A stretch of DNA of 64,000 bases from Candidatus Vogelbacteria bacterium (GCA_016188295.1 JACPIA010000003.1:30-64029); one strand, 5' to 3'; positions 27,228 through 59,440 are shown, numbered from the stretch's first letter. A program made the numbers and translations. Notes: generated by a model from the sequence alone, not told the origin.

Positions 27228-27269
27228 ATTATTCCAAAAAATACGCTATAGCGTGTAATTTGGAATAAT
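27228..27269. repeat. P2 palindromic element, copy 1 (ATTATTCCAAAAAATACGCTATAGCGTGTAATTTGGAATAAT)
   Basis: Outer arms ATTATTCCAAA/TTTGGAATAAT and inner palindrome ACGCTATAGCGT. The same family occurs at 58754 and 59398. Confidence 0.75.
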
Positions 27270-27299
27270 CTAACTTATTCTACTTATAAAGAGTAAAAA

Positions 27300-27857
27300 T
27301 TAAATGTAATCAAATTCTTGGAACACTTGTTTATAGAGCTCAATGGTAGCGCGCGCTTCGCGCTTGTTTAATTGATGATTAGGCTCGTGGGCAATTTGAT
27401 TCCGTACTTTATGCGCTTCCCAGGCTTGGTTAAGGGTAAGGAAGTCACTTGCCTCAATCGCCTTTAAGCGCTCGCCTAAATTCTCGCCCGGGTAATTCAT
27501 CCTCGCCACGAGTGCATCTAAAATAGTATCGGCTTCAATAATCGCCAGCTTCCAATCCGAGGGATTGTCCGAGTCAATAAATTTCATTACTCGCTCAAAC
27601 TGCTCGGTATAATCTTTAGAGGCCACCACTGGTTGAGTAATATTTTCAATAATCTTTTTCTTATTCAACTCAATTAATCGTAGCGAAATGTAAACAATAA
27701 GCGCGAGCCAGATCAGACCAATAGTTATTCCGATTACTTTAATTACCGGCAACCACACCAATACCGGCATCCCTAAATTACGCCAACCACCATTAAACAG
27801 TAATTGGTAAATTAAGTTAAAAAAATATTCAAAGTTAATGTAAACAGTCGATTGCAT
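27300..27857 (-). CDS. hypothetical membrane-anchored protein
   Basis: 185 aa with an N-terminal TM segment. No recognisable domain. Probably co-transcribed with gatCA. Confidence 0.45.
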   Translation of the reverse strand: MQSTVYINFEYFFNLIYQLLFNGGWRNLGMPVLVWLPVIKVIGITIGLIWLALIVYISLRLIELNKKKIIENITQPVVASKDYTEQFERVMKFIDSDNPSDWKLAIIEADTILDALVARMNYPGENLGERLKAIEASDFLTLNQAWEAHKVRNQIAHEPNHQLNKREARATIELYKQVFQEFDYI

Positions 27858-29278
27858 TATGATGTTTTAGCTTCAAATTCACCCGCAATCTCAAATAAAG
27901 TATTCTCACCCATTGGCGCACCAGTTAATTGGATACCGAGGGGTAAGCCCGCTTTAGTTTTGCCCGCCGGTATCGAGATGGCGGGTACGCCAGCTAAATT
28001 AATCGGCACCGTAAAAATATCTTCCAGATACATGGTCAAGGGATCACTCGCCTTCTCGCCGATTTTAAAGGCCGGCCCTGGGGTAGTGGGCGTTAAAATG
28101 GCATCCACCTCTTTAAACACTTTAGCGTAATCGGCTTTAATCATCTCACGCACTGCCCCGGCTTTAGCATAATAAGCATCGTAATAACCAGCCGAGAGTA
28201 CATAAGTACCAAGCATTATTCGCCGACGCACCTCTGGGCCAAAACCCTCGGCCCGCGACACCTCATACTCCTCCAGTAAATTTTTCCCTTCCGCATGATG
28301 ACCATAACGCACACCATCAAAGCGGGCTAAATTAGTGGAGGCCTCGGCCGGCATAATAATGTAATAACAAGCCAGTGCATATTTAATGGACGGCAACTCA
28401 ACATCCACCACTTCATAACCTAAGTTTTTAAATATCTTTTCCGCTTCGGCAAAAGTCGCCGCCATTTCTGGATCTAAACCCTCACTCACAAACGAGCGTG
28501 GTACGCCAATTTTTTTACGAGTCGAGACTGGCCGCAACTCATCAGCGCGAGTGGTGGAATCAAGCAGATCTACTCCTTTAATTACCTCAAACAATAATTT
28601 AGCATCAGCCACTGTTTTAGTAATGGGACCAATTTGATCAAGCGATGAGGCCATAGCTACAAGTCCTGAACGAGAGACTAGACCATAAGTGGGCTTAAGT
28701 CCGACTACTCCACAAAAAGCCGCCGGCTGACGAATCGAACCACCAGTGTCCGAGCCCAAAGCGCCCAAAGCCAAGTCAGCTGCTACTACAGCCACTGATC
28801 CACCCGAGGAACCACCGGCCACTCGAGTTAAATCCTTAGGATTTTTAACCGCCCCAAAAGCGGAGTTTTCCGTCGAGCCACCCATCGCAAATTCGTCCAT
28901 ATTAGTCCGGCCGAGTAAAATAGCCCCCGCCTCTTTTAATTTACTAATCACCGCCGCATCATAACTAGCGGTGTAATTAGCTAGAATTTTAGAAGCACAT
29001 GAAGCAATTTTGCCTTTAATTAAGATATTATTTTTAATCGCAAGCGGTACGCCGGCTAAAGGGGACAACTTTTCACCCTTGGCTCGACGCTCATCAATTA
29101 ATTTAGCTTGAACTAAAGCATCGGTAAATACTTCTAAATAAGCATTTAAATTATCACCCTTCGCTTTGGCTAAATAGTGCTCGGTTAAAGCCACGGCCGT
29201 TAACTCACCACTTGCTAATTTTTTAGCTACCCCGCTAATGGTCAAATTAGTGGTATCCATATTAACTGGTACTGTCAC
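27857..29278 (-). CDS. gatA: Glu-tRNA(Gln)/Asp-tRNA(Asn) amidotransferase subunit A
   Basis: Amidase signature GGSSGGS with Ser-cisSer-Lys triad context, 473 aa. Confidence 0.9.
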   Translation of the reverse strand: MTVPVNMDTTNLTISGVAKKLASGELTAVALTEHYLAKAKGDNLNAYLEVFTDALVQAKLIDERRAKGEKLSPLAGVPLAIKNNILIKGKIASCASKILANYTASYDAAVISKLKEAGAILLGRTNMDEFAMGGSTENSAFGAVKNPKDLTRVAGGSSGGSVAVVAADLALGALGSDTGGSIRQPAAFCGVVGLKPTYGLVSRSGLVAMASSLDQIGPITKTVADAKLLFEVIKGVDLLDSTTRADELRPVSTRKKIGVPRSFVSEGLDPEMAATFAEAEKIFKNLGYEVVDVELPSIKYALACYYIIMPAEASTNLARFDGVRYGHHAEGKNLLEEYEVSRAEGFGPEVRRRIMLGTYVLSAGYYDAYYAKAGAVREMIKADYAKVFKEVDAILTPTTPGPAFKIGEKASDPLTMYLEDIFTVPINLAGVPAISIPAGKTKAGLPLGIQLTGAPMGENTLFEIAGEFEAKTS

Positions 29279-29555
29279 CTAAAATAGCTTTGACCTCCAC
29301 AAAGCCATCATGAGATTTAGGCGCCGCGGCAAGTAGTTCATTAGTGTACTCACCAGCATCATGAGGATTAGTATCCACTCGCATCACATTAGCGGCGGGC
29401 AATTCCGTCGAGAGTGCCGGCACGTCAACTTGAGCAAGTTCCCCAACATAATTTAAAATCGAGTTTAAATCCTGCACCAAACTCGCCTCCTCCTCAGACT
29501 TAAGGGAGAGCCGGGCTAATCGGGCTAATTTTTGGACTTCCTCATTACTGATCAT
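29262..29555 (-). CDS. gatC: amidotransferase subunit C
   Basis: 97 aa with MISNEEVQKLARLARLSL, directly upstream of gatA. Confidence 0.8.
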   Translation of the reverse strand: MISNEEVQKLARLARLSLKSEEEASLVQDLNSILNYVGELAQVDVPALSTELPAANVMRVDTNPHDAGEYTNELLAAAPKSHDGFVEVKAILGDSTS

Positions 29556-29567
29556 AGGGTTATCGTA

Positions 29568-31553
29568 TCATTCTCCGAGTAGTTTGAGAAATGCCTTTTC
29601 ATCTAAAATAGATACCCCCAATTGCTCTGCTTTGTCATATTTAGAACCGGGATCGGTGCCAGCCACCACGTAACTAGTATTTTTGGAAACACTAGCCACT
29701 ACCTCACCACCCAAGCTTTTGATTTTTTGCTTGGTCTCATCGCGACTCATGGTGCTTAAAGTGCCAGTCAAGACAAAACTCTGGCCAGTCAATTTACCAG
29801 CTTGTTTTTTTTCTACTCTTTCGATCTTTACTTGCTCGAGTAAATCAGCCACCATTTTTTGATTAGCTTTATCGGCAAAAAATTCGACCACCTTCCCGGC
29901 CACTATCTCACCTACGCCATTTATTTGAGCGAGCTCCTCATGACCAGCCCGCATTAATTTATCCAAACAACCAAAATGTTGAGCTAAATCTTCAGCCGTC
30001 TCCTCGCCTACTTGAGGAATAGAAAGCGCCGTAACAAAACGCGCTAAAGTGATCTGACGACGCGAATTAATTGATCTAATTAACTTTTTGACTGACACCT
30101 CAGCAAAACGGGGTAAGGCCAAAAGATTATTGTCTGTCAATTTAAAAATATCAGCATAGGAGGAAATTAAATTATTTTCCAACAAGATATCAATTTGTTT
30201 GGGCCCTAGCCCCGGGATATCAAAAGCGTGTTTGCTAACAAAATAATGAAAGCGGCGCGATACTTGAGCAAAAGTATTGTTATTTACCGCTCGATGGGCA
30301 GCCTCACCGGATAAGCGTTTGATTGCTCCAATCCCCGGTAAGTGATCAGGAAAAATATACGGCTTAGTATTATGGGGACGCAATTCCGTCAGCACCTTAA
30401 CCACATCAGGAATAATGTCGCCTGATTTTTGAATAATCACCGTATCACCCACTCGGACATCGAGCCGCTTAATCTCATCCTCATTATGAAGGGTCGCTCG
30501 GGTAACAGTAGTACTGGCCACTAGTACTGGTCTAAGTTCGGCGACCGGTGTGATCGTCCCTTGTCGACCCACTTGCAAAGAGATCGCCTCCACCACAGTT
30601 GTAACCTGTTCGGCTGGAAATTTAAACGCAATAGCAAAGCGCGGCGACTTACCGGTATAGCCCATTTGTTGTTGCAGTCTGATATCATTAACTTTTACCA
30701 CCACCCCGTCGAGCCAATAATTCTCTTTATTTTTTTGGTTTTGCCATTTTTGCCAATACTTAATGACTGCTTCAATATCTGGCGCCAAAATAAAATGTTT
30801 GTTAACTTTAAAACCCAAATCTTGGAGTAACTTTAATTCTGCCAACTGATTATCCGGCAAACCAAAATCAGCCTGAGCCACATCATAAATAAACGAGTCT
30901 AATTGGCGGGCAGCTACAATTTTAGCATCAAGTTGGCGGATAGTGCCGGCGGCAATATTGCGCGGATTAGCATATAGTGGCAAATTATTTTTAGCTTGCT
31001 CGTCATTAATTCGCTTAAACTCTTTTTGGCCCATCCAAATCTCACCTTCCACAATGATATTGACCTTTTGTTCCAATTTTAAGGGAATCGAGGCGATGGT
31101 CCGGATATTTTGAGTCACATCTTCGCCCACCATACCATCGCCACGAGTAGCCGCCGTTTTAAGTAAACCCTCTACATAAGTTAAAACGATCTTAAAGCCA
31201 TCAATTTTAAGTTCGCAGACATACTCGAGCCGTTCGCGACCAGCCCACTTTTTGACCCGCTTATCAAACGCCCTAATATCCGCCTCATCAAAAGCATCGG
31301 CAAAAGACCACTGGGGTACTTGGTGGCGGATTTTAGCAAAAGCGGCCAAGGGGGCCCCCGAGACCCGCTGGGTTGGCGAGTCGGGAGTAATTAAATCGGG
31401 ATACTGCTCTTCTAATTGTCTAAGCTCCTCTTCTAAAGAGTCATAAGCTTGATCCGAGATCTCGGGTTGGTCTAATACATGGTAAAGCCGACGATGATAA
31501 TTAATGAGCTCTCGGAGCTTGATTACTCGTACAATCGCCTCTTGTTTATTCAT
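29568..31553 (-). CDS. ligA: NAD-dependent DNA ligase LigA
   Basis: Adenylation motif KxDG (ELKIDG), OB, Zn-finger, HhH and a C-terminal BRCT, 661 aa. Confidence 0.9.
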   Translation of the reverse strand: MNKQEAIVRVIKLRELINYHRRLYHVLDQPEISDQAYDSLEEELRQLEEQYPDLITPDSPTQRVSGAPLAAFAKIRHQVPQWSFADAFDEADIRAFDKRVKKWAGRERLEYVCELKIDGFKIVLTYVEGLLKTAATRGDGMVGEDVTQNIRTIASIPLKLEQKVNIIVEGEIWMGQKEFKRINDEQAKNNLPLYANPRNIAAGTIRQLDAKIVAARQLDSFIYDVAQADFGLPDNQLAELKLLQDLGFKVNKHFILAPDIEAVIKYWQKWQNQKNKENYWLDGVVVKVNDIRLQQQMGYTGKSPRFAIAFKFPAEQVTTVVEAISLQVGRQGTITPVAELRPVLVASTTVTRATLHNEDEIKRLDVRVGDTVIIQKSGDIIPDVVKVLTELRPHNTKPYIFPDHLPGIGAIKRLSGEAAHRAVNNNTFAQVSRRFHYFVSKHAFDIPGLGPKQIDILLENNLISSYADIFKLTDNNLLALPRFAEVSVKKLIRSINSRRQITLARFVTALSIPQVGEETAEDLAQHFGCLDKLMRAGHEELAQINGVGEIVAGKVVEFFADKANQKMVADLLEQVKIERVEKKQAGKLTGQSFVLTGTLSTMSRDETKQKIKSLGGEVVASVSKNTSYVVAGTDPGSKYDKAEQLGVSILDEKAFLKLLGE

Positions 31554-31558
31554 AATTC

Positions 31559-32116
31559 CTACTGTACCACACGAGTCTCAATAAAACGCTGGACTAACCG
31601 TGGCGAGGGTGAGTTACAATCAGCACTATAACCGAACGCTCGGATGGTAGCGACAACCCTGGGATCATCAGATAAAATGTCCCCATCTGGACTAGTTGCT
31701 GGTACGCCATGAAAAACTGTGACTTCGGCGCAACGAGGAGGAATATTATTTTCTCCTAACAAATCCACCTGATAAGAAAAAGACCCTCGACGTTCAATAT
31801 TATTGAATAGCTCCTCTACAATCACTGCACCATTATGACAAGTTAAAGCGGTAATACCGCCATTAAATAGACTGGCGCCCAACTCATTGACCCAAAACAA
31901 GGCGCAGTCCCGTCCGGCATCGGCGGCATAGTAAGCGATTTTAGCATCACGAGCCGTAGCGGCGATCACTAATTGTTTAAGTAAAATATTAGCTAACAGT
32001 AAGCCTACTGTGATCACAATACTAGAAACCAATACGGCATACAAGAGTACGAAACCATAATTTAATTTTAAATTAATCTTCATAATTTTAGAGTACTTCT
32101 TGAATTGGTCGAGCAT
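31559..32116 (-). CDS. pilus-associated protein (PilX-like / minor pilin-like)
   Basis: N-terminal hydrophobic segment in operon position with minor pilins. Weak class III signal. Confidence 0.35.
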   Translation of the reverse strand: MLDQFKKYSKIMKINLKLNYGFVLLYAVLVSSIVITVGLLLANILLKQLVIAATARDAKIAYYAADAGRDCALFWVNELGASLFNGGITALTCHNGAVIVEELFNNIERRGSFSYQVDLLGENNIPPRCAEVTVFHGVPATSPDGDILSDDPRVVATIRAFGYSADCNSPSPRLVQRFIETRVVQ

Positions 32117-32684
32117 AAATCACATCTTTTAACACCAATGTCCGCGGAGCCGCTTTATTCATCCATTTTACCGTTACTATCACCTCGGCTTGATTATATT
32201 GAGTTGTTTGATTGTCGGGAATAGGATTACCGTCAATACTACCAGTAATAGTATTGCTACCTGGTATGATCCCGATCTGCCTTACAAAATGAGCCTCATT
32301 TTCAACCCCACCAATAAATTCAAATGGTTTACATAACTCACCATTAGCTGGAGTATTGCAACTTTCTACCGTCTCTGGATTTTCTACATCAATATAACAA
32401 CCATGATCAGCAACACAATTAGTTAATCCAGCCAGCCATGGATAGTTATTCGGATAATCCATATCACCAATCCCAAACTGATTAGCATCACGACGATTCA
32501 TTACTAACTCGAGGCCCTCTTGAGCTAGATAAAATGCAGTAATCTCGTTCTTAGCATAATTACCATCAGTAATACCCCGTACCATTAATGATAGCGGACC
32601 AATTACCGCAATCACTAAAATAGTAACCGCCACAAAAGTCTCTAGTAAAGTGAAGCCACGATTGTTTGGGAGTGAGAATTTCAT
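32088..32684 (-). CDS. prepilin-type N-terminal cleavage/methylation domain protein (minor pilin)
   Basis: N-terminal NNRGFTLLETFVAVTILVIAV. Confidence 0.6.
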   Translation of the reverse strand: MKFSLPNNRGFTLLETFVAVTILVIAVIGPLSLMVRGITDGNYAKNEITAFYLAQEGLELVMNRRDANQFGIGDMDYPNNYPWLAGLTNCVADHGCYIDVENPETVESCNTPANGELCKPFEFIGGVENEAHFVRQIGIIPGSNTITGSIDGNPIPDNQTTQYNQAEVIVTVKWMNKAAPRTLVLKDVIYARPIQEVL

Positions 32685-32690
32685 AAACTC

Positions 32691-34553: not shown

Positions 34554-34595
34554 ATATCACTTAATTTTACCACGTTAGTCATTATTACCACCTTA

Positions 34596-34620
34596 AATGT
34601 CAAGGCCTCGCCTTGACATT
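34596..34620. repeat. REP palindrome (aatgtcaaggc ctc gccttgacatt), overlaps the RAYT stop
   Basis: Inverted-orientation copy of the 21730 element. Confidence 0.75.
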
Positions 34621-34992
34621 GTCGATGGAACCAGTTTGTTGATATTTTTTATTAAAATACATGGAATATCCAGTCATCAACTTTTGCACAAAAATACTAA
34701 TACCCTGTTCCGATTTTTCTTTTACTAGCAAATGAAAATGATTAGGCATTAAACAATAAGCACCGATATCAACTAGGGTACTACCTCGGTCTAAATTAAA
34801 AACTTTTTTTAAATCAGTCTGCTCTTGTCGCCAATGATCACTTAAATGGATAACTTTTTTGGCATTGGTAGTGTAAAGTAAGAGGATAAATCGTAGATGA
34901 TCATTATCGTCCAAGAAAATCTCACGACGATTAGTACCACGAGTGTATAAGTGATAATACTCATCGGGACTGAATTCCAATTTACGAGCCAT
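34600..34992 (-). CDS. REP-associated tyrosine transposase (RAYT; IS200/IS605-like HuH Y1 transposase)
   Basis: HuH motif CLMPNHFHLLV and catalytic Tyr region TGYSMYFNKKY, 130 aa. Flanked on both sides by REP palindromes. Confidence 0.75.
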   Translation of the reverse strand: MARKLEFSPDEYYHLYTRGTNRREIFLDDNDHLRFILLLYTTNAKKVIHLSDHWRQEQTDLKKVFNLDRGSTLVDIGAYCLMPNHFHLLVKEKSEQGISIFVQKLMTGYSMYFNKKYQQTGSIDNVKARP

Positions 34993-35010
34993 AACTTTAA
35001 TTTATTATAC

Positions 35011-35036
35011 CATGTCAAGGCCTCGCCTTGACAATG
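35011..35036. repeat. REP palindrome (catgtcaaggcctcgccttgacaatg)
   Basis: Same family. Confidence 0.7.
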
Positions 35037-35073
35037 AGGGGAAACAAAAAACCTCCTTGGTTGGAGGAGGGTT

Positions 35074-35128
35074 AATGTCAAGGCCTCGCCTTGCCGAAGG
35101 CTACGCCTTGCCGAAGGCTACCTAATTA
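35074..35128. repeat. degenerate REP plus 17-bp tandem duplication (cgccttgccgaaggcta x2)
   Basis: aatgtcaaggcctcgccttgccgaaggctacgccttgccgaaggctacc. Confidence 0.6.
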
Positions 35129-35574: not shown

Positions 35575-35704
35575 AAATTTAAATTAATTATAATCTCGTT
35601 TTCGACGTTAGTTCTATTATACAGCACACCCGTAAAATGAGTACATCACGGGTCAAGCCCCTGTGGATATCCCGTAAAGCGCAGACGCCACGGGACTAGG
35701 TACC

Positions 35705-36913: not shown

Positions 36914-36916
36914 AAA

Positions 36917-43741: not shown

Positions 43742-43821
43742 GTTTATTTAAATTAACGATTATTAAGACTACTTTTTCTCCTGCCAGCCATTATACCCTA
43801 TGTAGCCCTAGAGAGCAATCT

Positions 43822-43925
43822 GCGGTGTATTCTTAAAATAGCTCGAACGGAATTCTGTTCTCGCCCGCCTGCGGCGGGCTCGGGTCGGGAGGGCAAAAAA
43901 TCCGTGCGGCTTTGCCGCAAAAATT
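43822..43925. repeat. GC-rich inverted repeat A-prime (inverted copy of 44839-44942, about 99% identity)
   Basis: gcggtgtattcttaaaatagctcgaacggaattctgttctcgcccgcctgcggcgggctcgggtcgggagggcaaaaaatccgtgcggctttgccgcaaaaatt. Confidence 0.85.
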
Positions 43926-43964
43926 AACAATTTCAAGTTTTTCTTTGGCGGCAATTTAAAAATT

Positions 43965-44729
43965 TTAGAGACAGGGAACTGAAGAAAAATCCTGGTGACC
44001 TCGATTAAGTTGGCATCGTTGAGTAACTGTCGCATTTCCTAGTGTCCAAACATTATTGTTGTAATACGCAGATGCAACTTTTTTCTGTGCACTAACAGAA
44101 TCGTCTCGCATTCCTTCGTATATTGCAGTTACAGCGTATTGACCATTGTTGTTTTGGACACTGACGGTAACTGATCCACAAGTGTCAGGCGTACAACCGC
44201 CCCAATTCCGCAATACAAGAGTCCGAGCTTGTTCCTGAGTAAAAGTGGGTGTAGCAGATGTGATTGTAAAGTAATTATCAGAAACATCTTCAAGTTCTTG
44301 ACCAACAGTGACCGCTAATTTGTATCGTCCTGCTGGAATATCTACTGGAATGGTAACTGTTTTTACGCCATTATTTGGAGCATCAGTCCAACTGCTAACT
44401 AAATCTCCGTTGTTCAAATGTTTTCCGTCAGCTGTGTCCAAATGAATCCAAATACCAGCGGTAGAGGCAACATTTTTGGTTTGCCATTTGATTGTTATTT
44501 GATTTCCAGTCGTGTATGTTTCCCCGCCGTTCGGGGAAAGTAGAGTAATCGAACCATTGGCAAATTGCAGACTACCATCTTTCCCTCCCGCGCCACCAGT
44601 TGTCTTAATGCCTGGCGTAGGCGACAGCTGTTGATTGGACTTCAACATAAAATATCCGGCTATCCCCAAAACAACAACGACTAACACAATGAGCGCTATG
44701 ATTATATTTGCAAAACCTTTTTGATTCAT
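43965..44729 (-). CDS. hypothetical exported/membrane-anchored protein
   Basis: 254 aa with an N-terminal TM (IIIALIVLVVVVLGIAGYF) and a Gly/Thr/Asn-rich extracellular region. Bracketed by inverted repeats A-prime and A. Confidence 0.55.
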   Translation of the reverse strand: MNQKGFANIIIALIVLVVVVLGIAGYFMLKSNQQLSPTPGIKTTGGAGGKDGSLQFANGSITLLSPNGGETYTTGNQITIKWQTKNVASTAGIWIHLDTADGKHLNNGDLVSSWTDAPNNGVKTVTIPVDIPAGRYKLAVTVGQELEDVSDNYFTITSATPTFTQEQARTLVLRNWGGCTPDTCGSVTVSVQNNNGQYAVTAIYEGMRDDSVSAQKKVASAYYNNNVWTLGNATVTQRCQLNRGHQDFSSVPCL

Positions 44730-44838
44730 ATTTATAAATTTATTAGTTAATAATTTTTATGACTTTATGAAAAAATTTCTTTTGCCCTTCCAAAATATGG
44801 TCCGAGCCGATTTGTTTTCAGGTTCTTTGGCAGCTTGG

Positions 44839-44942
44839 AATTTTTGCGGCAAAGCCGCACGGATTTTTTTCCCTCCCGACCCGAGCCCGCCGCAGGCGGG
44901 CGAGAACAGAATTCCGTTCGAGCTATTTTAAGAATACACCGC
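44839..44942. repeat. GC-rich inverted repeat A (central copy)
   Basis: Reverse complement of 43822-43925. Contains sub-hairpins tgcggcaaagccgca and gcccgccgcaggcgggc. Confidence 0.85.
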
Positions 44943-45043
44943 AATTCAGGATTTCGCAAGTGGAAAGATGATGCCGAGCGGCGCGAAACGCGCCGCTCGG
45001 CTAGAATTTGAAAGGGCTTTTCGGGCGAAAAGGAAAAGGATTT
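44939..45043. repeat. GC-rich inverted repeat B (central copy, contiguous with A)
   Basis: Reverse complement of 46462-46566. Contains the perfect hairpin gccgagcggcgcg aaa cgcgccgctcggc. Confidence 0.85.
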
Positions 45044-45093
45044 ATCAATGAAGGGCAAAAGAAAATTTTTATCAATTTTAATCAAACAAAAAC

Positions 45094-46617
45094 ATGAAAT
45101 ACATAATCTATGCGAGAAAATCTACCGAGAGCGAGGAACGACAAATCATGTCTATTGAATCCCAGCTTTCTGAATTAAAAGAATTTGCCGCCAAAGAAAA
45201 ACTTGAAATTGTTGCTTCGCTTTGCGAAGCCCAAACTGCCAAAGAACCTGGGCGAATTAAATTCGCTGAAATGTTGTCATTTCTGGAGAGTGGAAAAGCA
45301 GACGGAATTCTCTCTTGGAATCCAGATCGTCTCGCCCGAAATTCCATAGACGGAGGACAGATTATCTATATGCTGGACACAGGAAAAATTAAGGACTTAA
45401 AATTTCCGACTCATTGGTTTGAAAATACACCGCAAGGAAAATTTATGCTGAACATTGCATTTGGGCAAAGCAAATACTATGTAGATAATCTAAGTGAAAA
45501 TATCAAACGCGGACATAGAGCAAAATTAAGAAAAAGCATTTGGCCCGGCTTTGCCCCGCTTGGCTACACCAACAATCATAAAACGCGAGATATTGATGTT
45601 GACCACGAAAAAGCTCCGTTCATACGAAAGGGTTTTGAATTGTATGCGACTGGAAAATATACGCTAAAACAGATTGCAAAAATTCTCAAAGATTTAGGAT
45701 TGCGAAGCTACAAAGGAAATGTCCTTTCAGTTTCCTGTGTCCAGCGATTTTTGCAGAATCGATTTTACTACGGACTGTTTGAATTCAAGGGCGAGACGCA
45801 TCAAGGAACGCACGAGCCAGTTATCACGAAGAAACTTTTTGATAAATGTCAGGAAGTTATGAAGGATCGCGGACATATTAAAACGAGAAAAGCAGAGAAA
45901 ACTTTTCCATTTCGCGGATTACTCGCTTGCGGAGAATGTAGTTGCGCTATTACTGCCGAGACACAAAAAGGTCATAACTATTATCGTTGCACGAAAAAGA
46001 AAATCGCTTGTTCGCAAAAATATGTCCGCGAAGAATTACTAACGGAACAAGTAAAAAGTTTTCTTCAAAAAGTTTCTTTATCGAGCCAAGACACCGAAAA
46101 AGTTTTGCGTGAGCTGGACAAAGACGAGCAGAAAGCAAAAGCGAGTAGTTTCGTAATCGTTCAAAATCTGAAGAGTGAGTTATCCGACATCGGCACAAAA
46201 TTGAATAAATTACTTTCTGCGTATCTCGACGAGATAATTACTTCGGAAGAGTATGCCACGCAAAAACAAAAAATGCTCTCACTCAAAATAGAGTGTGCGG
46301 AAGAAATCAGGGAAATTGAAGATGGAATTGTGTCTTGGCTCGAACCGGCTCGTGCGTGGATTAAATCCTTAAATCAAGCAGAGAAACTGCTTTCCTCTGG
46401 GGATAAGTCGGAAATGACAACATTTCTAAAACAAAACGGCTCGAACCATATTTTGATCGATAAATCCTTTTCCTTTTCGCCCGAAAAGCCCTTTCAAATT
46501 CTAGCCGAGCGGCGCGTTTCGCGCCGCTCGGCATCATCTTTCCACTTGCGAAATCCTGAATTGCGGAAGGGGAGGGATTCGAACCCTCGAGAGACTTTTA
46601 CATCCCTACCTCGTTAG
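45094..46617 (+). CDS. large serine recombinase (resolvase/invertase N-domain plus recombinase domain plus zinc ribbon plus coiled-coil)
   Basis: N-terminal IIYARKSTESEERQIMSIESQ catalytic-Ser region, recombinase domain and zinc ribbon CGECSC...YYRCTKKKIAC, 507 aa. The last ~50 codons read through repeat B-prime into the tRNA-Ser flank. The true C-terminus is probably near 46460. Confidence 0.8.
   Translation: MKYIIYARKSTESEERQIMSIESQLSELKEFAAKEKLEIVASLCEAQTAKEPGRIKFAEMLSFLESGKADGILSWNPDRLARNSIDGGQIIYMLDTGKIKDLKFPTHWFENTPQGKFMLNIAFGQSKYYVDNLSENIKRGHRAKLRKSIWPGFAPLGYTNNHKTRDIDVDHEKAPFIRKGFELYATGKYTLKQIAKILKDLGLRSYKGNVLSVSCVQRFLQNRFYYGLFEFKGETHQGTHEPVITKKLFDKCQEVMKDRGHIKTRKAEKTFPFRGLLACGECSCAITAETQKGHNYYRCTKKKIACSQKYVREELLTEQVKSFLQKVSLSSQDTEKVLRELDKDEQKAKASSFVIVQNLKSELSDIGTKLNKLLSAYLDEIITSEEYATQKQKMLSLKIECAEEIREIEDGIVSWLEPARAWIKSLNQAEKLLSSGDKSEMTTFLKQNGSNHILIDKSFSFSPEKPFQILAERRVSRRSASSFHLRNPELRKGRDSNPRETFTSLPR
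46462..46566. repeat. GC-rich inverted repeat B-prime, abutting and overlapping by about 3 nt the 3-prime end of tRNA-Ser(GCT)
   Basis: aaatccttttccttttcgcccgaaaagccctttcaaattctagccgagcggcgcgtttcgcgccgctcggcatcatctttccacttgcgaaatcctgaattgcgg. Confidence 0.85.
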
Positions 46618-46652
46618 CAGTGAGGCGCTTTCGACCACTCAGCCACCCCTCC
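46564..46652 (-). tRNA. tRNA-Ser (anticodon GCT)
   Basis: Reverse complement GGAGGGGTGGCTGAGTGGTCGAAAGCG...ctGCTaa...long variable arm...GGTTCGAATCCCTCCCCTTCCG. Confidence 0.8.
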
Positions 46653-46663: not shown

Positions 46664-46915
46664 CTACTTTATACTCTCTATCAACAAAAACTTCAACCTT
46701 TCTTTTCCTTTGCCAGTCTTGAGAAACAATTCCTCTCTACGTGCATCTTTTTCTGATACAAAAGCTTGATAATAAACCAATTTCCACGGGCCATTATTAC
46801 TGGTAAATTTACTATTACCTAACGAGTGTTCTTTAACTCGTCGCTTTAAATCAGCAGTAAAACCTTTGTATAATTTATTATTTCTCAAGCTTCTTAAAAC
46901 GTAGACATAATACAT
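46664..46915 (-). CDS. GIY-YIG nuclease superfamily protein (UPF0213-like)
   Basis: MYYVYVLRSLRNNKLYKGFTADLKRRVKEH is a GIY-YIG motif. The start is trimmed to the internal Met. The track ORF is 46664-46993. Confidence 0.7.
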   Translation of the reverse strand: MYYVYVLRSLRNNKLYKGFTADLKRRVKEHSLGNSKFTSNNGPWKLVYYQAFVSEKDARREELFLKTGKGKERLKFLLIESIK

Positions 46916-47044
46916 AAATTGTCCACTCTCAGCCCTAGGCTGATCGGCCTTGGGCCGAAGCCACCCCTCCGTATTACTGCAACACACCGGCAATTTAACA
47001 CATCTAGAGCAGTAAGGCTAGCTTAAAATTTAACACAAAATTAA

Positions 47045-47424: not shown

Positions 47425-47469
47425 CAATTGTACCATCTTCCAGTGATCACGTTTACTTGGTACAATTGA
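47425..47469. repeat. P3 palindromic direct repeat, left copy (caATTGTACCAtcttccagtgatcacgtttactTGGTACAATtga)
   Basis: 10-bp perfect inverted arms AATTGTACCA/TGGTACAATT around a 22-nt core containing GTGATCAC. A second copy lies at 48070-48113. Confidence 0.8.
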
Positions 47470-47475
47470 TCTAAA

Positions 47476-48051
47476 ATGAAACATAAAACCAATAACATTA
47501 AAAGGGTTTATAGCCCCATGAAGCAAAAAATAATACTTTTACTTCACGCCGGCATTGCCTTATCCTTAACTCGTACCGCTAAAAAACAAATCTATCTTTT
47601 AAAAACCACACATCGAAAATGGCAAAAAATCGAAAAAAGAAAGCTTTATCGCTTAATTCGTGAATTTCACCATGAGCGACTAGTTGATTGGCGAGAGTAT
47701 AATGATGGTAGTATTAGCATCACCTTATCTCAAGCTGGCAAAAAACTAGCGCAAAAATTTGATTTTGATAATATGACTCTTCCGCAATCAGGACGATGGG
47801 ATAGGAAATGGCGAGTAGTGATGTACGATATTCCTCAACCAAAACAGGCTACTCGTGATGCTTTAAGGTCAAAATTAAAAGAATTAGGTTTTAAAGAATT
47901 CCAAAAATCCGTTTTCATTTACCCCTACTCTTGTTGCGATGAAATCAATTTTATTATTGAATTTTTTGATATTAGACCATATGTCACCTTTGGTGAGTTA
48001 GTTAATCCAACCAATGAAGCTTCATTAAAAATGAGTTTTGGTGTTAAATAA
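47476..48051 (+). CDS. wHTH plus Cas2-like (Cas2/VapD-fold) domain protein, paralog A (PaaX-like architecture)
   Basis: C-terminal RWRVVMYDIPQPKQATRDALRSKLKELGFKEFQKSVFIYPY matches the Cas2 core pattern (hhhYDh..kr..kv.k.L...G.r.Q.SVF). The N-terminal roughly 100 aa is a basic helix-rich domain. About 45% identical to 58811-59374. Confidence 0.55.
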   Translation: MKHKTNNIKRVYSPMKQKIILLLHAGIALSLTRTAKKQIYLLKTTHRKWQKIEKRKLYRLIREFHHERLVDWREYNDGSISITLSQAGKKLAQKFDFDNMTLPQSGRWDRKWRVVMYDIPQPKQATRDALRSKLKELGFKEFQKSVFIYPYSCCDEINFIIEFFDIRPYVTFGELVNPTNEASLKMSFGVK

Positions 48052-48069: not shown

Positions 48070-48113
48070 AATTGTACCATCTTCCAGTGATCACGTCTAC
48101 TTGGTACAAGTTG
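48070..48113. repeat. P3 palindromic direct repeat, right copy
   Basis: 41/44 identical to 47425-47469. Confidence 0.8.
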
Positions 48114-53139: not shown

Positions 53140-53156
53140 TCTGTATAGTAGAAATA

Positions 53157-54290: not shown

Positions 54291-55944
54291 CTACTTTTAA
54301 CATCGAGCGGAGCTGGTCCTCGGGTATCTCTTTGGTTGTTTGAGTCATTGGTTGACTTGATGTAGGAGCCGATGTCGGTGCTGGCTTAGTCTCAGTCAAC
54401 ACATCATTAAGCGCCGCTCGAAGAGCATCTTTATGTTTACCAGTATCTTTGGATTTTGGCGCAACAGCAACTAAGGTATTTAATGAAACCTTAGCTTCTG
54501 GTACAGCTCGTTCTAATTGAGGTTTAGGGGTAATTGGTGCGGGCGCCGGTGTGGCTACTTGAACCACCGGTGCTGGAGGTGGTGTTGGTGGCTTGGGTTT
54601 AGGTATAGATGTTGCCCGAGGCTTTGGTACGGGTTCTAACTTAGGTTCACTATTACCCTTCTCATCATGAAATTGCCCGATCACCTCTTCTACTTTGATT
54701 CGAGGCTGAGAGTAAGTCTGGCGCGACCACTCCACAATCTCGGCTTTAAAGTTATTCTCGGCCGGCACAATTGGCGGCAAAGTCACGGCCGAGAATGGCC
54801 GAGATCCGACTCCATCGATCATTAAAGTCAAATAAATTTGAGCAAAACCTAAATTGACCAGATCCTCGGCGGTAAATACCGGGGCAAAGATCTTTTCTAA
54901 CAATTCCGCATCTAGTGGCCCAACCCGAAAGGCAATCGTAGTACCAACGTTGCCAAATACCGCACTGCGCACCGTTTCGGGCATTTGCTCAACATATTGA
55001 TGAGCGATCGTTAACGACAATTTATATTTGCGGGCTTCGGATAAAATATCAGCAAAAGTGTCATTAACAAAAGACTGGAACTCATCGACATATAAATAAA
55101 ATGGTGGCAACCGGCGAATCTCATTGTCGCTAACATTGGCTCGCGACATCGCCCCTAAATAAAGTTTAGTGATTAAGAGACTACCCAACAAACTGGCATT
55201 TTGCTCACCAATTAAACCTTTAGATAAGTTGATGATCAAAATCTTTTTTTGATCCATTAATTGGCGAATATCAAAATTAGATTTAGGCTGACCAATAATA
55301 TTGCGAACCAGCGGATTGGAAGTAAATTGACCGATTTTGTTTTGAATCGCCGGCACCGCCTCGGCGGCAAATCGCTCGGTATAACCGGCATACTCTTTAA
55401 CCCAATAACTTTTAACTGACGGGTCGGTAATATTAGCAATCACTTTATTGCGATAATCCTTCTCGGCAAGCATTTTATTAATACCGAGCATGGTTGATCC
55501 CGGATACTCCAATAGAGCTAAAATGGTATTCTGTAAAATATACTGCATTCGATCGGAGAAACTCTCTTCACCAAACAGTTTTTTGAAAGCACTCATGAGG
55601 CCAGACAACACCAAGTGACGTTGATCTTTGCCCACATCCTCCATTACATTAAAAGCAATCGGATAATCAAGGTCGAACGGTGCAAAATAAACGACATCTT
55701 TTATCCTTTCTTGTGGCACATAATCCAGCAGCAAATCAGCGGTCTTGCCGTGAGGATCAATAAAGGCCATCCCCTCACCATTTTTAATGTCTTGAATCGC
55801 CAAATTCTCGAGCAAGGTCGATTTACCCATACCGGTTTTACCGATAATGTAGACATGTTTAGACCGATCCTCGGCTTTAATACCAAAAGTCGTCTTTTTG
55901 CCCCGGAAATCCGTTTGAGCAAAATAATTAATAAGAGAGGTCAT
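54280..55944 (-). CDS. TraD/VirD4-like (type IV coupling protein family, FtsK/HerA-superfamily) P-loop ATPase with Pro-rich C-terminal tail
   Basis: Walker A YIIGKTGMGKST, Walker B YLYVDEFQ and an IAHQ motif. C-terminal low-complexity PKPKPPTPPPAPVVQVATPAPAP. Confidence 0.5.
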   Translation of the reverse strand: MTSLINYFAQTDFRGKKTTFGIKAEDRSKHVYIIGKTGMGKSTLLENLAIQDIKNGEGMAFIDPHGKTADLLLDYVPQERIKDVVYFAPFDLDYPIAFNVMEDVGKDQRHLVLSGLMSAFKKLFGEESFSDRMQYILQNTILALLEYPGSTMLGINKMLAEKDYRNKVIANITDPSVKSYWVKEYAGYTERFAAEAVPAIQNKIGQFTSNPLVRNIIGQPKSNFDIRQLMDQKKILIINLSKGLIGEQNASLLGSLLITKLYLGAMSRANVSDNEIRRLPPFYLYVDEFQSFVNDTFADILSEARKYKLSLTIAHQYVEQMPETVRSAVFGNVGTTIAFRVGPLDAELLEKIFAPVFTAEDLVNLGFAQIYLTLMIDGVGSRPFSAVTLPPIVPAENNFKAEIVEWSRQTYSQPRIKVEEVIGQFHDEKGNSEPKLEPVPKPRATSIPKPKPPTPPPAPVVQVATPAPAPITPKPQLERAVPEAKVSLNTLVAVAPKSKDTGKHKDALRAALNDVLTETKPAPTSAPTSSQPMTQTTKEIPEDQLRSMLKVDGK

Positions 55945-55965
55945 TTGTTTATAGTATAGCCAGTT

Positions 55966-57141
55966 TTAAGGTGCGGTGCTAGTGGCGATATTAAGTTGAT
56001 AAGCACTATTAGTGTATTTATTAGACGGGTCCCACATCATCCAGGAATTAATACCGAGATCGTAGAGAGCTTGTTTTTGCGCTTCAATCATTTTAGCAGT
56101 ATAATCGGCACCAAGACTAAAATCTTGCAACCATGGCCGGATTTTAGCCACCGTCGAGCTGGCCGCCACCGTCTTATCGATCGCCCCTTGAGCGGCGATT
56201 TTAATCATCGCATAAGGGTGCTCCGCCGGATTAGCAAAACCATTAAAGGTCGGCGGATAATGCGAGGGATAAATCATTGGAGCTAAATAATCAAAGTGAG
56301 GTAAGGCCCGTTCCCAGACCTGGCCGATCCCTAAATCATCGTTATTGGTAGTGGTCATGCCAAATAAATCGGCCGAAATAGGGATAGTCAATAATGATAA
56401 TTGCTCGTCCAAATATTTAAAGAAAGATTCTAACGCCTCGGGTTTAGTTTGCTCATTAGAATTATAAAAACGGTAAGCAATGTCCTGCATATTACCGTCA
56501 GAAGGAAAACGGATATAATCAAAATTAAGCTCGTCAAAACCAACTTGTTCAGCCATCTTACCTACCATTACCGTGTAATCCCAAACCTCATGTGAGCCTT
56601 GATCGAGCCAACTAACGCCCTTGTGATCCCTCCACATTTCACCATCACTAGCTCGGATCACCGCTAAGTCTGGCCGCGTTTTAGACAAATGGCTATCTTG
56701 AAATACTGAAATCCGGGCAATCACGTAAATATTTTTTTCATGAAGGCGTTTGATTAAACCCTCTATATCGAGAATACGCTGACTCATACTCCCATATTTA
56801 GACATTGCGGTATTGGTCGCCGTAAAAGAGATGATGCCGGTATAATCTTTAACATCAATCACCACAGCATTAATCTCCGTTTGATCAATCAAATTGATCA
56901 ACGGTTCACGAATACTAGCGGTACCCGCTACCCAACTGGTCATATATACCGCTCGTAATGGATCAGGGGTTGGTAAATGTCGTGGTTTGGATGGAGTAAC
57001 GGCCACTGTCAGATTGTCGCTATCACCAGAAACATAAGAAGTGCTCGGCCAAATCAAACTGGAGATTAAAATTAAACCAATCAAAGCTGCCACTATCAGC
57101 AACGCTCGGCCAAATTTAGATTTAATTGCTTTCTGGGTCAT
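55966..57141 (-). CDS. putative glycoside-hydrolase-like TIM-barrel protein (DUF4015-like), membrane-anchored
   Basis: N-terminal TM. FDELNFDYIRFPSDG and AVVIDVKDYTG motifs resemble the GHL families. Low certainty. Confidence 0.35.
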   Translation of the reverse strand: MTQKAIKSKFGRALLIVAALIGLILISSLIWPSTSYVSGDSDNLTVAVTPSKPRHLPTPDPLRAVYMTSWVAGTASIREPLINLIDQTEINAVVIDVKDYTGIISFTATNTAMSKYGSMSQRILDIEGLIKRLHEKNIYVIARISVFQDSHLSKTRPDLAVIRASDGEMWRDHKGVSWLDQGSHEVWDYTVMVGKMAEQVGFDELNFDYIRFPSDGNMQDIAYRFYNSNEQTKPEALESFFKYLDEQLSLLTIPISADLFGMTTTNNDDLGIGQVWERALPHFDYLAPMIYPSHYPPTFNGFANPAEHPYAMIKIAAQGAIDKTVAASSTVAKIRPWLQDFSLGADYTAKMIEAQKQALYDLGINSWMMWDPSNKYTNSAYQLNIATSTAP

Positions 57142-57349
57142 GCCAGTCTTTGCGAGCCTCTTGATACTTAATCGCGTGGACTAACTGGCGATTAGCCACT
57201 ATCCCAAACAAAACAATCAATAAACCGGCGGCAAGTAAAATAAAATTATCAATAGTCAGAGGCAAACCCAAAAAGGGCACCAAAGCGACAACGACCCCTA
57301 AAATAGTAATAGCGCGATTGCGCCACAAAGCGCGAGTATTATCTTCCAT
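57122..57349 (-). CDS. hypothetical small membrane protein
   Basis: 75 aa with 2 TM segments. Overlaps the neighbour by 20 nt. Confidence 0.35.
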   Translation of the reverse strand: MEDNTRALWRNRAITILGVVVALVPFLGLPLTIDNFILLAAGLLIVLFGIVANRQLVHAIKYQEARKDWHDPESN

Positions 57350-57356
57350 ACGGCGA

Positions 57357-58730
57357 CTAGTATATCACAGCTTGGGCCACTTGGCCTATATCCCCAGCTC
57401 CTAAAATGACCACTAAATCGCCAGGACTAGTTGCCGCTTTAATAAAAGTGATAGCATCGGTTAATTGGGGAGTATAGTGGACTACCTTTTTTTGTTTAAC
57501 GATTAATTCAACTAGATCTCGACTGCTGATGTGAGGATCGAGCGCCTCACGGGCGGCGTAAATGTCCGTGATCGCAATAATATCAGCATCGGTAAAACTG
57601 TTAGCAAACTCTTTGAGAAGTAATTTGGTTCGACTATAGAGATGGGGCTGAAAGACGGCGATGAGCTGTCCGGGAGTAATACTTTTTTGGCGGGCGCGCA
57701 AAAATTCCCGCGCGCCCGCCAACGTGGCCCGGATCTCGGTGGGATGATGAGCGTAATCATCGTAAACCAAAGCCCCATTCTCCGTTGCACCTTTATACTC
57801 AAAACGCCGCCAAGTGCCAGCAAAATCCGCTAGAGCATTTAAGGCGACCACTTGGCTGATCCCTAAAATTTTAGCCGTCGCTATAACCGCCTTGGCATTA
57901 AGCACATTATGGACACCAGGCACTTTAAGTTTTGGTCTAATCCGACTAGCGGTCCAATCAATTATTGTACATTTAGCTTTTTTTAGCACTGGTCTTAATA
58001 CTTTATCCTTAGTATTACAAATGACATAACCATCCTCCGGCACTTTAGCCACTAACTCACCAAACGCTTTTTGAATATCTTTTAAATCTTTATAGTAATC
58101 TAGATGATCAGTCTCAATGTTGGTAATAATCACCATATTGGGGTGTAGATTTAAAAACGAGCGCTGATACTCGCAAGCCTCCACGATCAATAAATCACTG
58201 TGGCCGGCAATAAAATTAGAACCAACATTATTGTGATTTTTAATCAGACTACCAACAATCACTGTAGGATCTTTTTCAGCTTCGACGCAGACTTGAGCCA
58301 GCATCGCGGTGGTAGTGGTCTTACCGTGCGTGCCGGCGACAGCCACGGTATATTTGTCGCGGGAAATTATACCAATCATCTCCGGGTAAGTGACACAAGG
58401 TATGCCATATTTTTTAGCAATCATTAATTCCGGATTGTTAGCTGGTATCGCTATAGTATAGACCACCAAATCTAGGTCATTAGTAATATGACTGGCGGTA
58501 TGACCCTCATAAATCATTGCTCCCGCCCGCGCCAATTCCTCCGTCACTAGCGACTTACTGCGATCCGAGCCACTAACTTGTTTACCTCCGCCCAACATCA
58601 TCCGAGCAATGGCCGAGACGCCAATTCCCCCAATGCCAATAAAGTGCACCTTTCTTGCCTTGAGCAAAGTCGAAGGATTACTTCCATATATAGACTCCAT
58701 ACGTCCCCAATTAAAGCATTTTACTGACAC
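57357..58730 (-). CDS. murC: UDP-N-acetylmuramate--L-alanine ligase
   Basis: N-terminal VHFIGIGGIGVSAIARMM, Mur ligase central GTHGKTTTT and a C-terminal domain. Confidence 0.85.
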   Translation of the reverse strand: MSVKCFNWGRMESIYGSNPSTLLKARKVHFIGIGGIGVSAIARMMLGGGKQVSGSDRSKSLVTEELARAGAMIYEGHTASHITNDLDLVVYTIAIPANNPELMIAKKYGIPCVTYPEMIGIISRDKYTVAVAGTHGKTTTTAMLAQVCVEAEKDPTVIVGSLIKNHNNVGSNFIAGHSDLLIVEACEYQRSFLNLHPNMVIITNIETDHLDYYKDLKDIQKAFGELVAKVPEDGYVICNTKDKVLRPVLKKAKCTIIDWTASRIRPKLKVPGVHNVLNAKAVIATAKILGISQVVALNALADFAGTWRRFEYKGATENGALVYDDYAHHPTEIRATLAGAREFLRARQKSITPGQLIAVFQPHLYSRTKLLLKEFANSFTDADIIAITDIYAAREALDPHISSRDLVELIVKQKKVVHYTPQLTDAITFIKAATSPGDLVVILGAGDIGQVAQAVIY

Positions 58731-58753
58731 AAAAACAAAATGACAGCCAACTA

Positions 58754-58797
58754 ATTATTCCTCCCAAAAATACGCTATCGCGTATTTTTTGGTATAA
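58754..58797. repeat. P2 palindromic element, copy 2 (overlaps the -35/-10 region of the downstream gene)
   Basis: ATTATTCCTCCCAAAAATACGCtatcGCGTATTTTTGGTATAAT with 12-bp arms CCAAAAATACGC/GCGTATTTTTGG. TATAAT at 58792-58797 sits 13 nt before ATG 58811. Confidence 0.8.
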
Positions 58798-58810
58798 TCA
58801 TATTTATATT

Positions 58811-59374
58811 ATGAGAAGTAAACCCAAGAACATCCATAGCCCTCTAAAACAGAAGGTGCTTACTCTCTTGCTGGCTGGTACCGCCTTGGGACTAACCCGA
58901 TCCTACAAAACCCAAAAGAGAATCTTAAAATCCATACCTAGAACCTTGAGGGATATTGACCGGGGCTATCTGTACCGTATTCTTGATGAATTTAATAACA
59001 ACCGATTAATTGACTGGAAAGAAAAAGCTGATGGTTCTATTTGTTTGATCATTACCGAAAAAGGCAAAGAAACCGCTCTTCAATTTAACCCTGATTTTCT
59101 TAAAATCAAACGACCGCCCATTTGGGATAAGCGTTGGCGAGTAGTTATTTATGACATCCCCGATAAGAAAAAGAGCGCCCGTGACGCCCTACGATACAAA
59201 TTAAAAGAGCTCGGTTTTAAAGAGTGGCAGAAATCTGTTTTTATCCATCCCTACCCTTGTCTCAATGAAATTAACTTTACTGTCGAATTTTTTGATGTCC
59301 GGCCTTATGTCCGTTATGCCGAACTAATCAATCCAACCAATGAAGCGGAGCTTAAACTACATTTCAAAATCTAG
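58811..59374 (+). CDS. wHTH plus Cas2-like domain protein, paralog B
   Basis: C-terminal RWRVVIYDIPDKKKSARDALRYKLKELGFKEWQKSVFIHPYPCLNE is the Cas2-like core. Paralog of 47476-48051. Bracketed by inverted P2 elements. Confidence 0.55.
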   Translation: MRSKPKNIHSPLKQKVLTLLLAGTALGLTRSYKTQKRILKSIPRTLRDIDRGYLYRILDEFNNNRLIDWKEKADGSICLIITEKGKETALQFNPDFLKIKRPPIWDKRWRVVIYDIPDKKKSARDALRYKLKELGFKEWQKSVFIHPYPCLNEINFTVEFFDVRPYVRYAELINPTNEAELKLHFKI

Positions 59375-59397
59375 TAAAGATAACTCTAATTTTTACT

Positions 59398-59440
59398 ATT
59401 ATTCCATTTTATACGCGATAGCGTATTTTTGGGAGGAATC
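59398..59440. repeat. P2 palindromic element, copy 3 (inverted relative to copy 2)
   Basis: Its reverse complement GATTCCTCCCAAAAATACGCTATCGCGTATAAAATGGAATAAT shares a 28-bp identical core with copy 2. Confidence 0.8.

Follow-up and report, generated by a model that had tools for sequence, protein, structure and literature searches.

What does a palindrome do that stands on both sides of one small gene and once more at a distance from it? This question is raised by a 64,000-nucleotide stretch of DNA from a Candidatus Vogelbacteria bacterium (GCA_016188295.1, JACPIA010000003.1:30-64029), referred to here as the window, which contains three copies of an element that we call P2: copy 1 at 27.2 kb, and copies 2 and 3 on either side of gene B. 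A sequence-only reading of the window had proposed that P2 is the cognate site of the winged-helix/Cas2-like protein encoded by gene B and that copy 2 is its autoregulatory operator. Both proposals gain support from a comparison of some 80 related loci, from the co-variation of element and protein, and from the operator geometry known for the repressor PaaX. We regard it as probable, on the strength of sequence comparison, that P2 is the private operator set of an autorepressor, a shortened PaaX-like protein (mini-PaaX) encoded at 58811-59374.

All three copies of P2 are present where they had been placed, with copy 3 inverted (Table 1). The sequence common to copies 2 and 3 measures 29 nt (58757-58785; copy 3 reverse-complemented) rather than the 28 bp first given, and the two copies form an inverted pair of 42 nt that is 88% complementary; the dyad centers of the two copies are about 641 bp apart. 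The arms of copy 2, described earlier as perfect over 12 bp, are perfect over 10 bp (AAAAATACGC/GCGTATTTTT) and reach 12 bp only with a one-base bulge, the right arm having six T and the left arm five A. The right arm of this copy is itself an extended -10 promoter element, TGGTATAAT (58790-58798), which thus lies inside the palindrome, and its TATAAT (58793-58798) is separated from the ATG at 58811 by 12 nt instead of 13. Copy 3 begins 23 nt past the TAG stop codon of gene B rather than directly after it, and its T-run (59423-59427) is internal to the element and does not end it. The best dyad symmetry among the three belongs to copy 1. When the window was searched with a 20-nt core pattern allowing up to three mismatches, three matches were obtained, at copies 2 and 3 (shuffled sequences are expected to give 0.01), and copy 1 was missed. 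A covariance model built from 114 elements of related loci, from which copies 1 and 3 had been held out, recovers both.

What kind of protein stands between copies 2 and 3? The gene B product matches Pfam PF20803 (PaaX_M, "PaaX central Cas2-like domain") with E = 3e-20, and the two proteins of this kind in the window score 72.5 and 74.1 bits against a cut-off of 24. With TIGR02277 only profile positions 64-150 are matched, at 26.7-28.4 bits (26.7 for gene B) against a cut-off of 264.55; PaaX_C has no match in the profile search, and the gene B protein ends at residue 187. Its AlphaFold model has a predicted local distance difference test (pLDDT) score of 77 overall. The C-terminal domain (pLDDT 85-93) is ferredoxin-like with beta-alpha-beta-beta-alpha-beta topology, and the winged helix (pLDDT 61-76) consists of helices 11-28, 32-41 and 51-63, a beta hairpin at 67-81, and a helix at 83-91. 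The top Foldseek match is E. coli W PaaX (8a39; E = 6e-5, 139 columns), followed by Cas2 structures and VapD proteins, and a PHROG profile named "DNA binding protein" weakly matches residues 30-89. From residue 105 onward, the Cas2-like half, the family has 19 invariant residues, compared with 8 in the winged-helix half, the smaller number being expected if DNA specificity diversifies. The Pfam match and the predicted winged helix uphold the domain assignment made earlier, and we conclude that gene B encodes a PaaX repressor minus its C-terminal ligand domain, that is, a mini-PaaX.

Gene B has murC and an NlpC/P60-like gene as its neighbors, and no paa genes were seen among the neighbors of family members, which include murC, murD, gatC, ligA and infB. 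Several public records label members of the family "CRISPR-associated endonuclease Cas2" (CRISPR, clustered regularly interspaced short palindromic repeats); judging from domain composition and genomic context, this label is probably a misannotation. A search for defense systems with PADLOC returned weak Cas2 profile matches only and gives no support to a role in defense. In the searchable literature we found no description of the mini-PaaX family or of its operator bracket.

Is the bracket peculiar to gene B? We fetched 80 loci with relatives of the gene from species-representative genomes, in which 380 relatives were confirmed, with up to six loci in one metagenome-assembled genome (MAG); all are from Patescibacteria, mostly Vogelbacteria and Paceibacterota. 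When the 130 nt upstream of each locus were compared with the 130 nt downstream, in 58 of 81 loci the two flanks matched each other beyond the 99th percentile of pairs formed across loci. The best palindrome was centered on a CGA/TCG-like core in 60 upstream and 55 downstream flanks, a set that includes loci whose two copies are too divergent to pass the pairwise comparison. The bracket is a trait of the mini-PaaX family, and a second presumed cognate site past the stop codon is kept almost universally.

The elements follow a common plan. They are about 42-46 bp long, with a central core (CGATCG, GCTATCGC, GCGGTCG, TGATCA or CATG-type), a CCA at positions -14 to -12 and a TGG at +12 to +14 from the center, some 23-26 bp between these two, and variable arms extending to about 20 positions on either side. 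Across the family the core is nearly invariant and the arms vary. Changes in the arms are compensatory in that 76.6% of cells are paired, compared with 35-42% when the partner column is slid, a value that partly reflects selection since the sites were picked for dyad symmetry. The extended -10, TGGTATAAT at +12 to +20, is a feature of the upstream copy only: of the 60 upstream copies 15 have a perfect TATAAT at +15 to +20, and of the 55 downstream copies one; at least five of its six positions match in 25 and 10 of them, respectively. The distance from element center to ATG peaks at 26-27 nt, which places the -10 box 6-7 nt from the ATG and implies a leaderless mRNA.

The downstream copy follows other rules. 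Repeats are mostly direct (34 direct and 11 inverted; 46 and 10 in a second count), inverted ones being found in 10-11 of 45-58 loci, with a modest link between repeat orientation and the strand of the neighboring gene (Fisher p = 0.04). In 33 of 76 loci the downstream neighbor is convergent; the downstream copy is therefore not in general a promoter operator, and we rejected the idea that it serves as the promoter of a co-directional gene as a rule for the family.

Three loci carry still more copies. Downstream of the mini-PaaX gene, L046 (3610-4029), L043 (3603-4024) and L044 (3661-4022) have three or four extra cognate elements in tandem, irregularly spaced at about 90-270 nt and mostly with a TGG(T/A)ATAAT arm. 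No open reading frame (ORF) of at least 60 codons intervenes, and the extra copies may serve as decoys or as promoters for small RNAs or peptides. A CRISPR-like array was also considered for the repeats and set aside, there being none in the window and the extra copies of these three loci being irregularly spaced.

Does the element track the protein that it flanks? Mean element identity, with the core excluded, is 0.44 between proteins of 45-55% N-terminal identity and 0.80 above 80%. This rise of element identity with N-terminal identity is the outcome, in favor of a cognate pairing, of a check on co-variation that had been suggested from the sequence. The two copies of one locus have a mean identity of 0.75. 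Among relatives at 60-80% protein identity, upstream-upstream and downstream-downstream comparisons mostly give about 0.45-0.65 and within-locus comparisons mostly 0.66-0.98; in near-identical relatives, upstream copies agree better with each other (0.98-1.00) than with downstream copies (0.86-0.89). From this pattern it appears that the two copies of a locus co-diverge slowly and are not rapidly homogenized. Three paralogs of one MAG, namely gene B, its paralog gene A in the window, and P0032 on another contig, have three different element pairs. Partial correlation of the element with the N-terminal half of the protein is 0.27 and with the C-terminal half 0.18, values that are confounded by shared ancestry and only suggestive. 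Overall, the alignments show that each paralog has private arms and that element sequence co-varies with the protein.

How might such operators work? In the arrangement that we propose, the two winged helices of a dimer would contact the outer arms (..TTCC(A) / (T)GGAA..), 12-20 bp on either side of the center, and the inner palindrome of P2, ACGC-TATC-GCGT, would be a second conserved determinant. Because the right arm of copy 2 is the extended -10, bound protein would exclude RNA polymerase and the gene would repress itself, its mRNA being predicted to be nearly leaderless. Such an arrangement would resemble that of E. coli PaaX, which binds TGATTC(N27)GAATCA and represses its own promoter by steric hindrance (PMC9493321). 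Copy 3 may be an auxiliary operator, acting through cooperative looping with the site 641 bp away, as a roadblock or by insulation, and its inner hairpin with T5 may also help to end the gene B transcript. Copy 1, at the -35 box of a distant operon, would be one more target of the same repressor.

Several observations weigh against this account. Asymmetric features are common to both copies of a locus, the half-sites being more alike on the same side (0.75) than as mirror images (0.68; p = 0.005), which a symmetric dimer does not require, and the arms of P0032 are hardly palindromic. Nothing in the published PaaX site corresponds to the CGATCG-like core, and simple autorepression leaves the downstream copy unexplained. 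The effector-binding domain of PaaX is absent, so that no signal input can be proposed, and an invariant aspartate of the Cas2-like domain, Asp115, leaves room for a possible catalytic role. Finally, no element was found upstream of three distant homologs of the operon next to copy 1 (45-51% identical, in other genomes), which is a weak test.

What, then, is the copy at 27.2 kb? It lies 30 nt 3' of gene 27300-27857(-) and upstream of a two-gene operon, beside a promoter-like site with 10 of 12 consensus matches. The -35 box of this site shares the last base of the element, whose center is near -55 of the predicted start. The two operon proteins are 33% identical to each other and have no Pfam match; the block matches Ca. 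Vogelbacteria HYV76_00555 at 100%, and a hairpin with a T-run is found by the operon at about 25405-25440. In L002, a close relative, the homolog of orf27300 and groES abut directly and the operon block is absent, which indicates that the operator-plus-operon block was inserted or has been differentially lost. The earlier suggestion that the gene B protein acts on this copy is plausible insofar as the element abuts promoter-like -35 and -10 boxes; it is tempered by the three distant homologs, which carry ordinary promoters. Judged by its position, copy 1 is a probable extra target of the gene B repressor. Apart from this, the long 5' leaders of the window gene (about 27110-27150, minus strand) and of a 51%-identical homolog (L115, upstream of 227) share the motif GGGG(C/T)TC...GGG(T/A)TGAGGGAC, which may be a cis-regulatory RNA.

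Table 1. Positions and properties of the P2, P1 and P3 elements and associated features in the window (bits, score with the covariance model)
Feature	Position	Strand or orientation	Sequence or composition	Remarks
P2 copy 1	27228-27269		ATTATTCCAAAAAATACGCTATAGCGTGTAATTTGGAATAAT	solo; dyad center 27248/27249; 37.2 bits
P2 copy 2	58754-58798		ATTATTCCTCCCAAAAATACGCTATCGCGTATTTTTTGGTATAAT	upstream of gene B; dyad center 58777/58778; 32.1 bits
P2 copy 3	59398-59440	inverted		downstream of gene B; dyad center 59418/59419; 24.9 bits
Gene B	58811-59374	+	187-residue mini-PaaX	winged helix ~10-91; Cas2-like PaaX_M 105-187
Gene A	47476-48051	+	191-residue mini-PaaX paralog	53% identical to gene B
P1 upstream	47426-47465		AATTGTACCATCTTCCAGTGATCACGTTTACTTGGTACAA	39.7 bits
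P1 downstream	48070-48109	direct		18 nt past gene A stop; 33.5 bits
P3	20871-20918	-	GTGGTCTCTATTTTCTACG-GT-CGTAGAAAATAGAGACCAC	solo; perfect 19-bp arms, CGGTCG core; 37.4 bits
Promoter-like site	27200-27228	-	-35 TTGACT (27228-27223), 17-nt spacer, -10 TATAGT (27205-27200)	
Two-gene operon	25462-27098	-	26451-27098 (215 residues) and 25462-26163 (233 residues)	AGGAG ribosome-binding site at 26451-27098

Could the elements instead be the ends of something that moves? We think it unlikely that the element-gene-element block is a portable cassette that relocates or exchanges as a unit. In such a case the repeats would be terminal repeats, or would have arisen at a solo element by recombination, either site-specific or homologous; solo elements would mark targets or the scars of excision; and the ends would be worked on by the protein itself or by an enzyme of the host. 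Relatives of gene B (65-84% identity) do occupy three contexts: between murC and murD (window, L081, L086), between gatC and ligA (L001, L002, L082, L103, L109), and downstream of infB (L083). At gatC/ligA the window has a bare 12-nt junction with no element (29556-29567); L002 (2903-3623) has a complete 721-nt unit at the same junction, and at least four further lineages have a complete unit there. When six loci are aligned, the outer ends of the elements mark the limits of similarity, and the gene-distal halves of the pair around gene B make up an inverted repeat that is perfect over 29 bp. The co-divergence of the two copies of a locus would also fit a unit of this kind, as would the predominance of direct orientation, which is expected after single-crossover integration. 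Solo P2-type elements are present in metagenomes, and a Y1 transposase fragment (79-residue Y1_Tnp, L082 4895-5134) stands beside the unit at gatC/ligA.

These points are outweighed by others. The unit encodes neither a transposase nor a recombinase domain, and the junctions examined show no duplication of the target site; the empty gatC/ligA site has no solo element and so speaks against integration at a site already in place. Identical proteins occur in one context, gatC/ligA, among the places listed (6 each; 24 and 11 contigs), so that recent transposition was not seen. At the murC site the lineage has been retained between genomes whose MurC proteins share no more than 58-59% identity. Paralogs of one genome have different ends and about 50-60% identity, so that none is a recent copy. 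The three contexts are accounted for just as well by paralog lineages that were differentially lost. A phage origin finds no support, as no relative was found in 2.9 million viral contigs and the PHROG match mentioned above is weak. Terminal inverted repeats fail as a rule for the family, with gene-distal half-sites no more alike (0.68) than gene-proximal ones (0.69) and direct orientation predominant. What survives of the mobile cassette proposed earlier is thus the three contexts and the empty gatC/ligA junction; the terminal inverted repeats, in a family where direct repeats predominate, and the mobility itself, with no transposase at hand, find little backing. We conclude that the units are long-resident with occasional loss or relocation and are not active elements. 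There is a slim chance that they are portable repressor/operator cassettes whose protein recognizes both ends and cuts or recombines at the CGATCG-like core by means of the Cas2-type aspartate; they would then possibly be a previously undescribed kind of genetic element, with solo elements as landing sites or excision scars.

One further observation concerns the murC site, where the gene B orthologs of L081 and L086 are 79-84% identical to gene B and the adjacent MurC, MurD and DUF4015 proteins only 52-59%. Either unusually strong constraint or exchange between lineages could account for this excess.

Could the palindromes be structural, acting without a protein partner? They might be repetitive extragenic palindromic (REP)-like sequences, or intrinsic terminators working in both directions, which happen to shield a small monocistronic gene; we give this idea little credence. 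P2 and P3, the latter a solo element of the same class, do fold into stable hairpins (z = -4.8 to -9.7). Copy 3 has a minimum free energy of -14.6 kcal/mol (z = -3.2), and on the plus strand, the sense strand of gene B, it forms an inner 6-bp stem with three GC pairs followed by T5, a weak terminator-like hairpin; many members of the family have A-rich 5' and T-rich 3' flanks. However, a terminator scan did not call copy 3, and P1, the element pair around gene A, folds no better than shuffled sequence (z = -0.96 for the downstream copy). Each paralog's element has its own sequence, which tracks its protein, and the -10 box sits in fixed register within the upstream copy; both count against this idea. 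At the gathering score of Rfam 15 no family overlaps the elements, the window containing only tRNAs and RNase P.

The symmetry itself is imperfect in ways that bear on hairpin formation. Positions 5-6 on either side of the center are often asymmetric. In the downstream copies of the gene B clade (window 59398-59440, L081, L082, L086, L103) the left A-tract is flipped to a T-tract, giving CCATTTTATACGC compared with CCAAAAATACGC upstream; such a flip keeps the A/T-tract character and breaks hairpin pairing. Together with the folding of P1, the asymmetry and the flips suggest that the element is read as double-stranded DNA and not as a hairpin.

Copy number gives a further answer to the structural proposal. 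The element model finds six elements in the 64-kb window (the P1 pair, the P2 pair, solo P2 and solo P3), four of which adjoin genes A and B. In 477 kb of related loci, nearly all hits of the model adjoin gene ends; an independent simple scan of the same sequence gives 93 elements within 160 nt of gene ends and 17 elsewhere (about 450 kb), where shuffles lead us to expect 1.2. The earlier reading had named numerous copies unrelated to these genes as the mark of a generic REP-like repeat; in the 64 kb and 477 kb covered here copies are few and close to mini-PaaX genes, and we rejected a repeat of that kind. A metagenome scan with the 20-nt P2 core pattern gave 18 loci, four with an adjacent mini-PaaX gene and several that are clear solo elements with the full architecture, for instance L101, with dus on one side and a dnaX-like gene on the other; a few lie inside genes and probably match by chance.

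A true REP-like family that brackets genes is present in the same window; its sequence is different and scores 13.8 bits with the element model. This family, ATGTCAAGGCCTCGCCTTGACAT (34597-35099), flanks a 130-residue Y1_Tnp (IS200-like) gene at 34600-34992(-), which is a REP/RAYT (REP-associated tyrosine transposase) arrangement with the gene as the candidate RAYT. Two more copies of ATGTCAAGGCCTCGCCTTGACAT, at 21123-21147 and 21732-21756, bracket a tag-like gene at 21126-21713(-).

It is very improbable that the protein is an active Cas2-like nuclease, its winged helix targeting the elements and its Cas2-like domain cutting DNA or RNA at or near the CGATCG-like core, in what could be a self-limitation, recombination or conflict function. 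Asp115, within the motif YDIP...QKSVF, is invariant in the family and aligns with the catalytic region of the Cas2 protein SSO8090; the core is nearly invariant while the arms vary; and Cas2 profiles match with E = 1e-5 to 1e-4. These matches cover only the first 35 or so residues, with gene B under both curated cut-offs (PF09827, 21.5 against 23.8; TIGR01573, 24.0 against 24.5) and gene A at 23.5 and 25.0, respectively. The elements are intact and conserved over long evolutionary distances, RNA targeting cannot account for the upstream element, which the transcript of the gene does not include, the window has no CRISPR array, and cas1 was not seen adjacent, though no cas1 search was made. The same domain in PaaX is described as a dimerization motif (PMC9493321).

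Besides P2, the window holds further elements of the class that the earlier reading had missed, as it had the extended -10 within the palindrome: the P1 pair and the solo element P3. The P1 copies are identical at 39 of 40 positions (98%), and the right arm of the upstream copy, TGGTACAAT, is an extended -10 that lies 9 nt before the ATG of gene A. P3 sits between a 65-residue Nudix fragment (20629-20826, minus strand) and a 55-residue ORF fragment (20915-21082, minus strand). No cognate mini-PaaX gene for P3 is present in the window, and P3 was rejected as the site of P0032, which has a different pair.

Other repeats in the window frame other genes. A HicA/HicB-like pair (7293-7535 and 7528-7755, minus strand) is enclosed by direct repeats of 46 nt (7243-7288 and 7797-7842, 98% identical) whose sequence is a duplicate of the 5' end of the ORF at 6991-7287; a tRNA adjoins at 7843-7913. 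The block 7243-7842 looks like a toxin-antitoxin insertion. Just upstream of gene A, a serine recombinase gene (45094-46617, plus strand) is framed by 114-nt inverted repeats (44939-45052 and 46453-46566, 98% complementary), with a second inverted pair of 105 nt (43821-43925 and 44839-44943), a tRNA at 46564-46652 and a GIY-YIG-like ORF at 46664-46993 nearby. The region 43821-46652 may be an integrated or invertible element.

Why might these operators matter? Patescibacteria, also known as the candidate phyla radiation (CPR), are hard to grow, and their regulation is little characterized. The mini-PaaX family is widespread, and since each member appears to come with its own operator, a binding site can be proposed from the flanks of the gene, and regulons could be predicted by searching each genome for further copies of the element. 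The mini-PaaX pairs look like natural orthogonal repressor/operator parts with a compact promoter and a leaderless mRNA. If the reading is true, mutually orthogonal repressor-operator pairs could be a notable layer of transcription control in reduced Paceibacteria genomes. The conservation of a second site directly after the stop codon is a design feature that simple autorepression does not account for.

How does this arrangement compare with known systems? Miniature inverted-repeat transposable elements and insertion sequences come to mind because gene B is bracketed by a 29-bp perfect inverted repeat; unlike them, the unit has neither transposase nor target-site duplication, its family has mostly direct repeats, and no identical copies are found at different places among those listed. 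With Cas2 and VapD the protein shares the ferredoxin-like fold and a YD(I/V) motif with a conserved aspartate. Here, however, the domain shares a polypeptide with a DNA-binding winged helix, only two repeats are present, about 640 bp from each other with the gene itself in between, no CRISPR array is found in the window, and no cas1 was seen beside the genes, with no search made for it. REP/RAYT systems likewise have a gene flanked by its own palindromes, solo copies elsewhere, and palindromes specific to each paralog; they differ in that a PaaX-like gene here takes the place of the Y1 transposase, copies are few, not all elements fold well as hairpins, and the window's own Y1_Tnp gene (34600-34992) has a different palindrome.

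In immunity regions of the lambda type, the cI gene is flanked by OL and OR, which interact through long-range looping, and autoregulation is negative at the site nearest the promoter. The mini-PaaX gene would similarly be a negatively autoregulated repressor gene bracketed by its own operators, but there is one site per side and not a triple operator, the fold is unrelated, and there is no phage context.

The nearest relative is PaaX of E. coli and Pseudomonas (PDB 8a39, 3l09), which represses phenylacetate catabolism. Unlike PaaX, the proteins described here are 180-200 residues long without the C-terminal helical effector (phenylacetyl-CoA) domain, their genes are not beside paa genes, several paralogs occur per small genome, each with private arms, and the operator has an extra conserved central palindrome and a second copy past the stop codon. 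Like PaaX, they have an N-terminal winged helix followed by a Cas2-like central domain, and in both systems two inverted half-sites, about 27 bp apart in PaaX and formed here by CCA and TGG about 23-26 bp apart, lie over the promoter.

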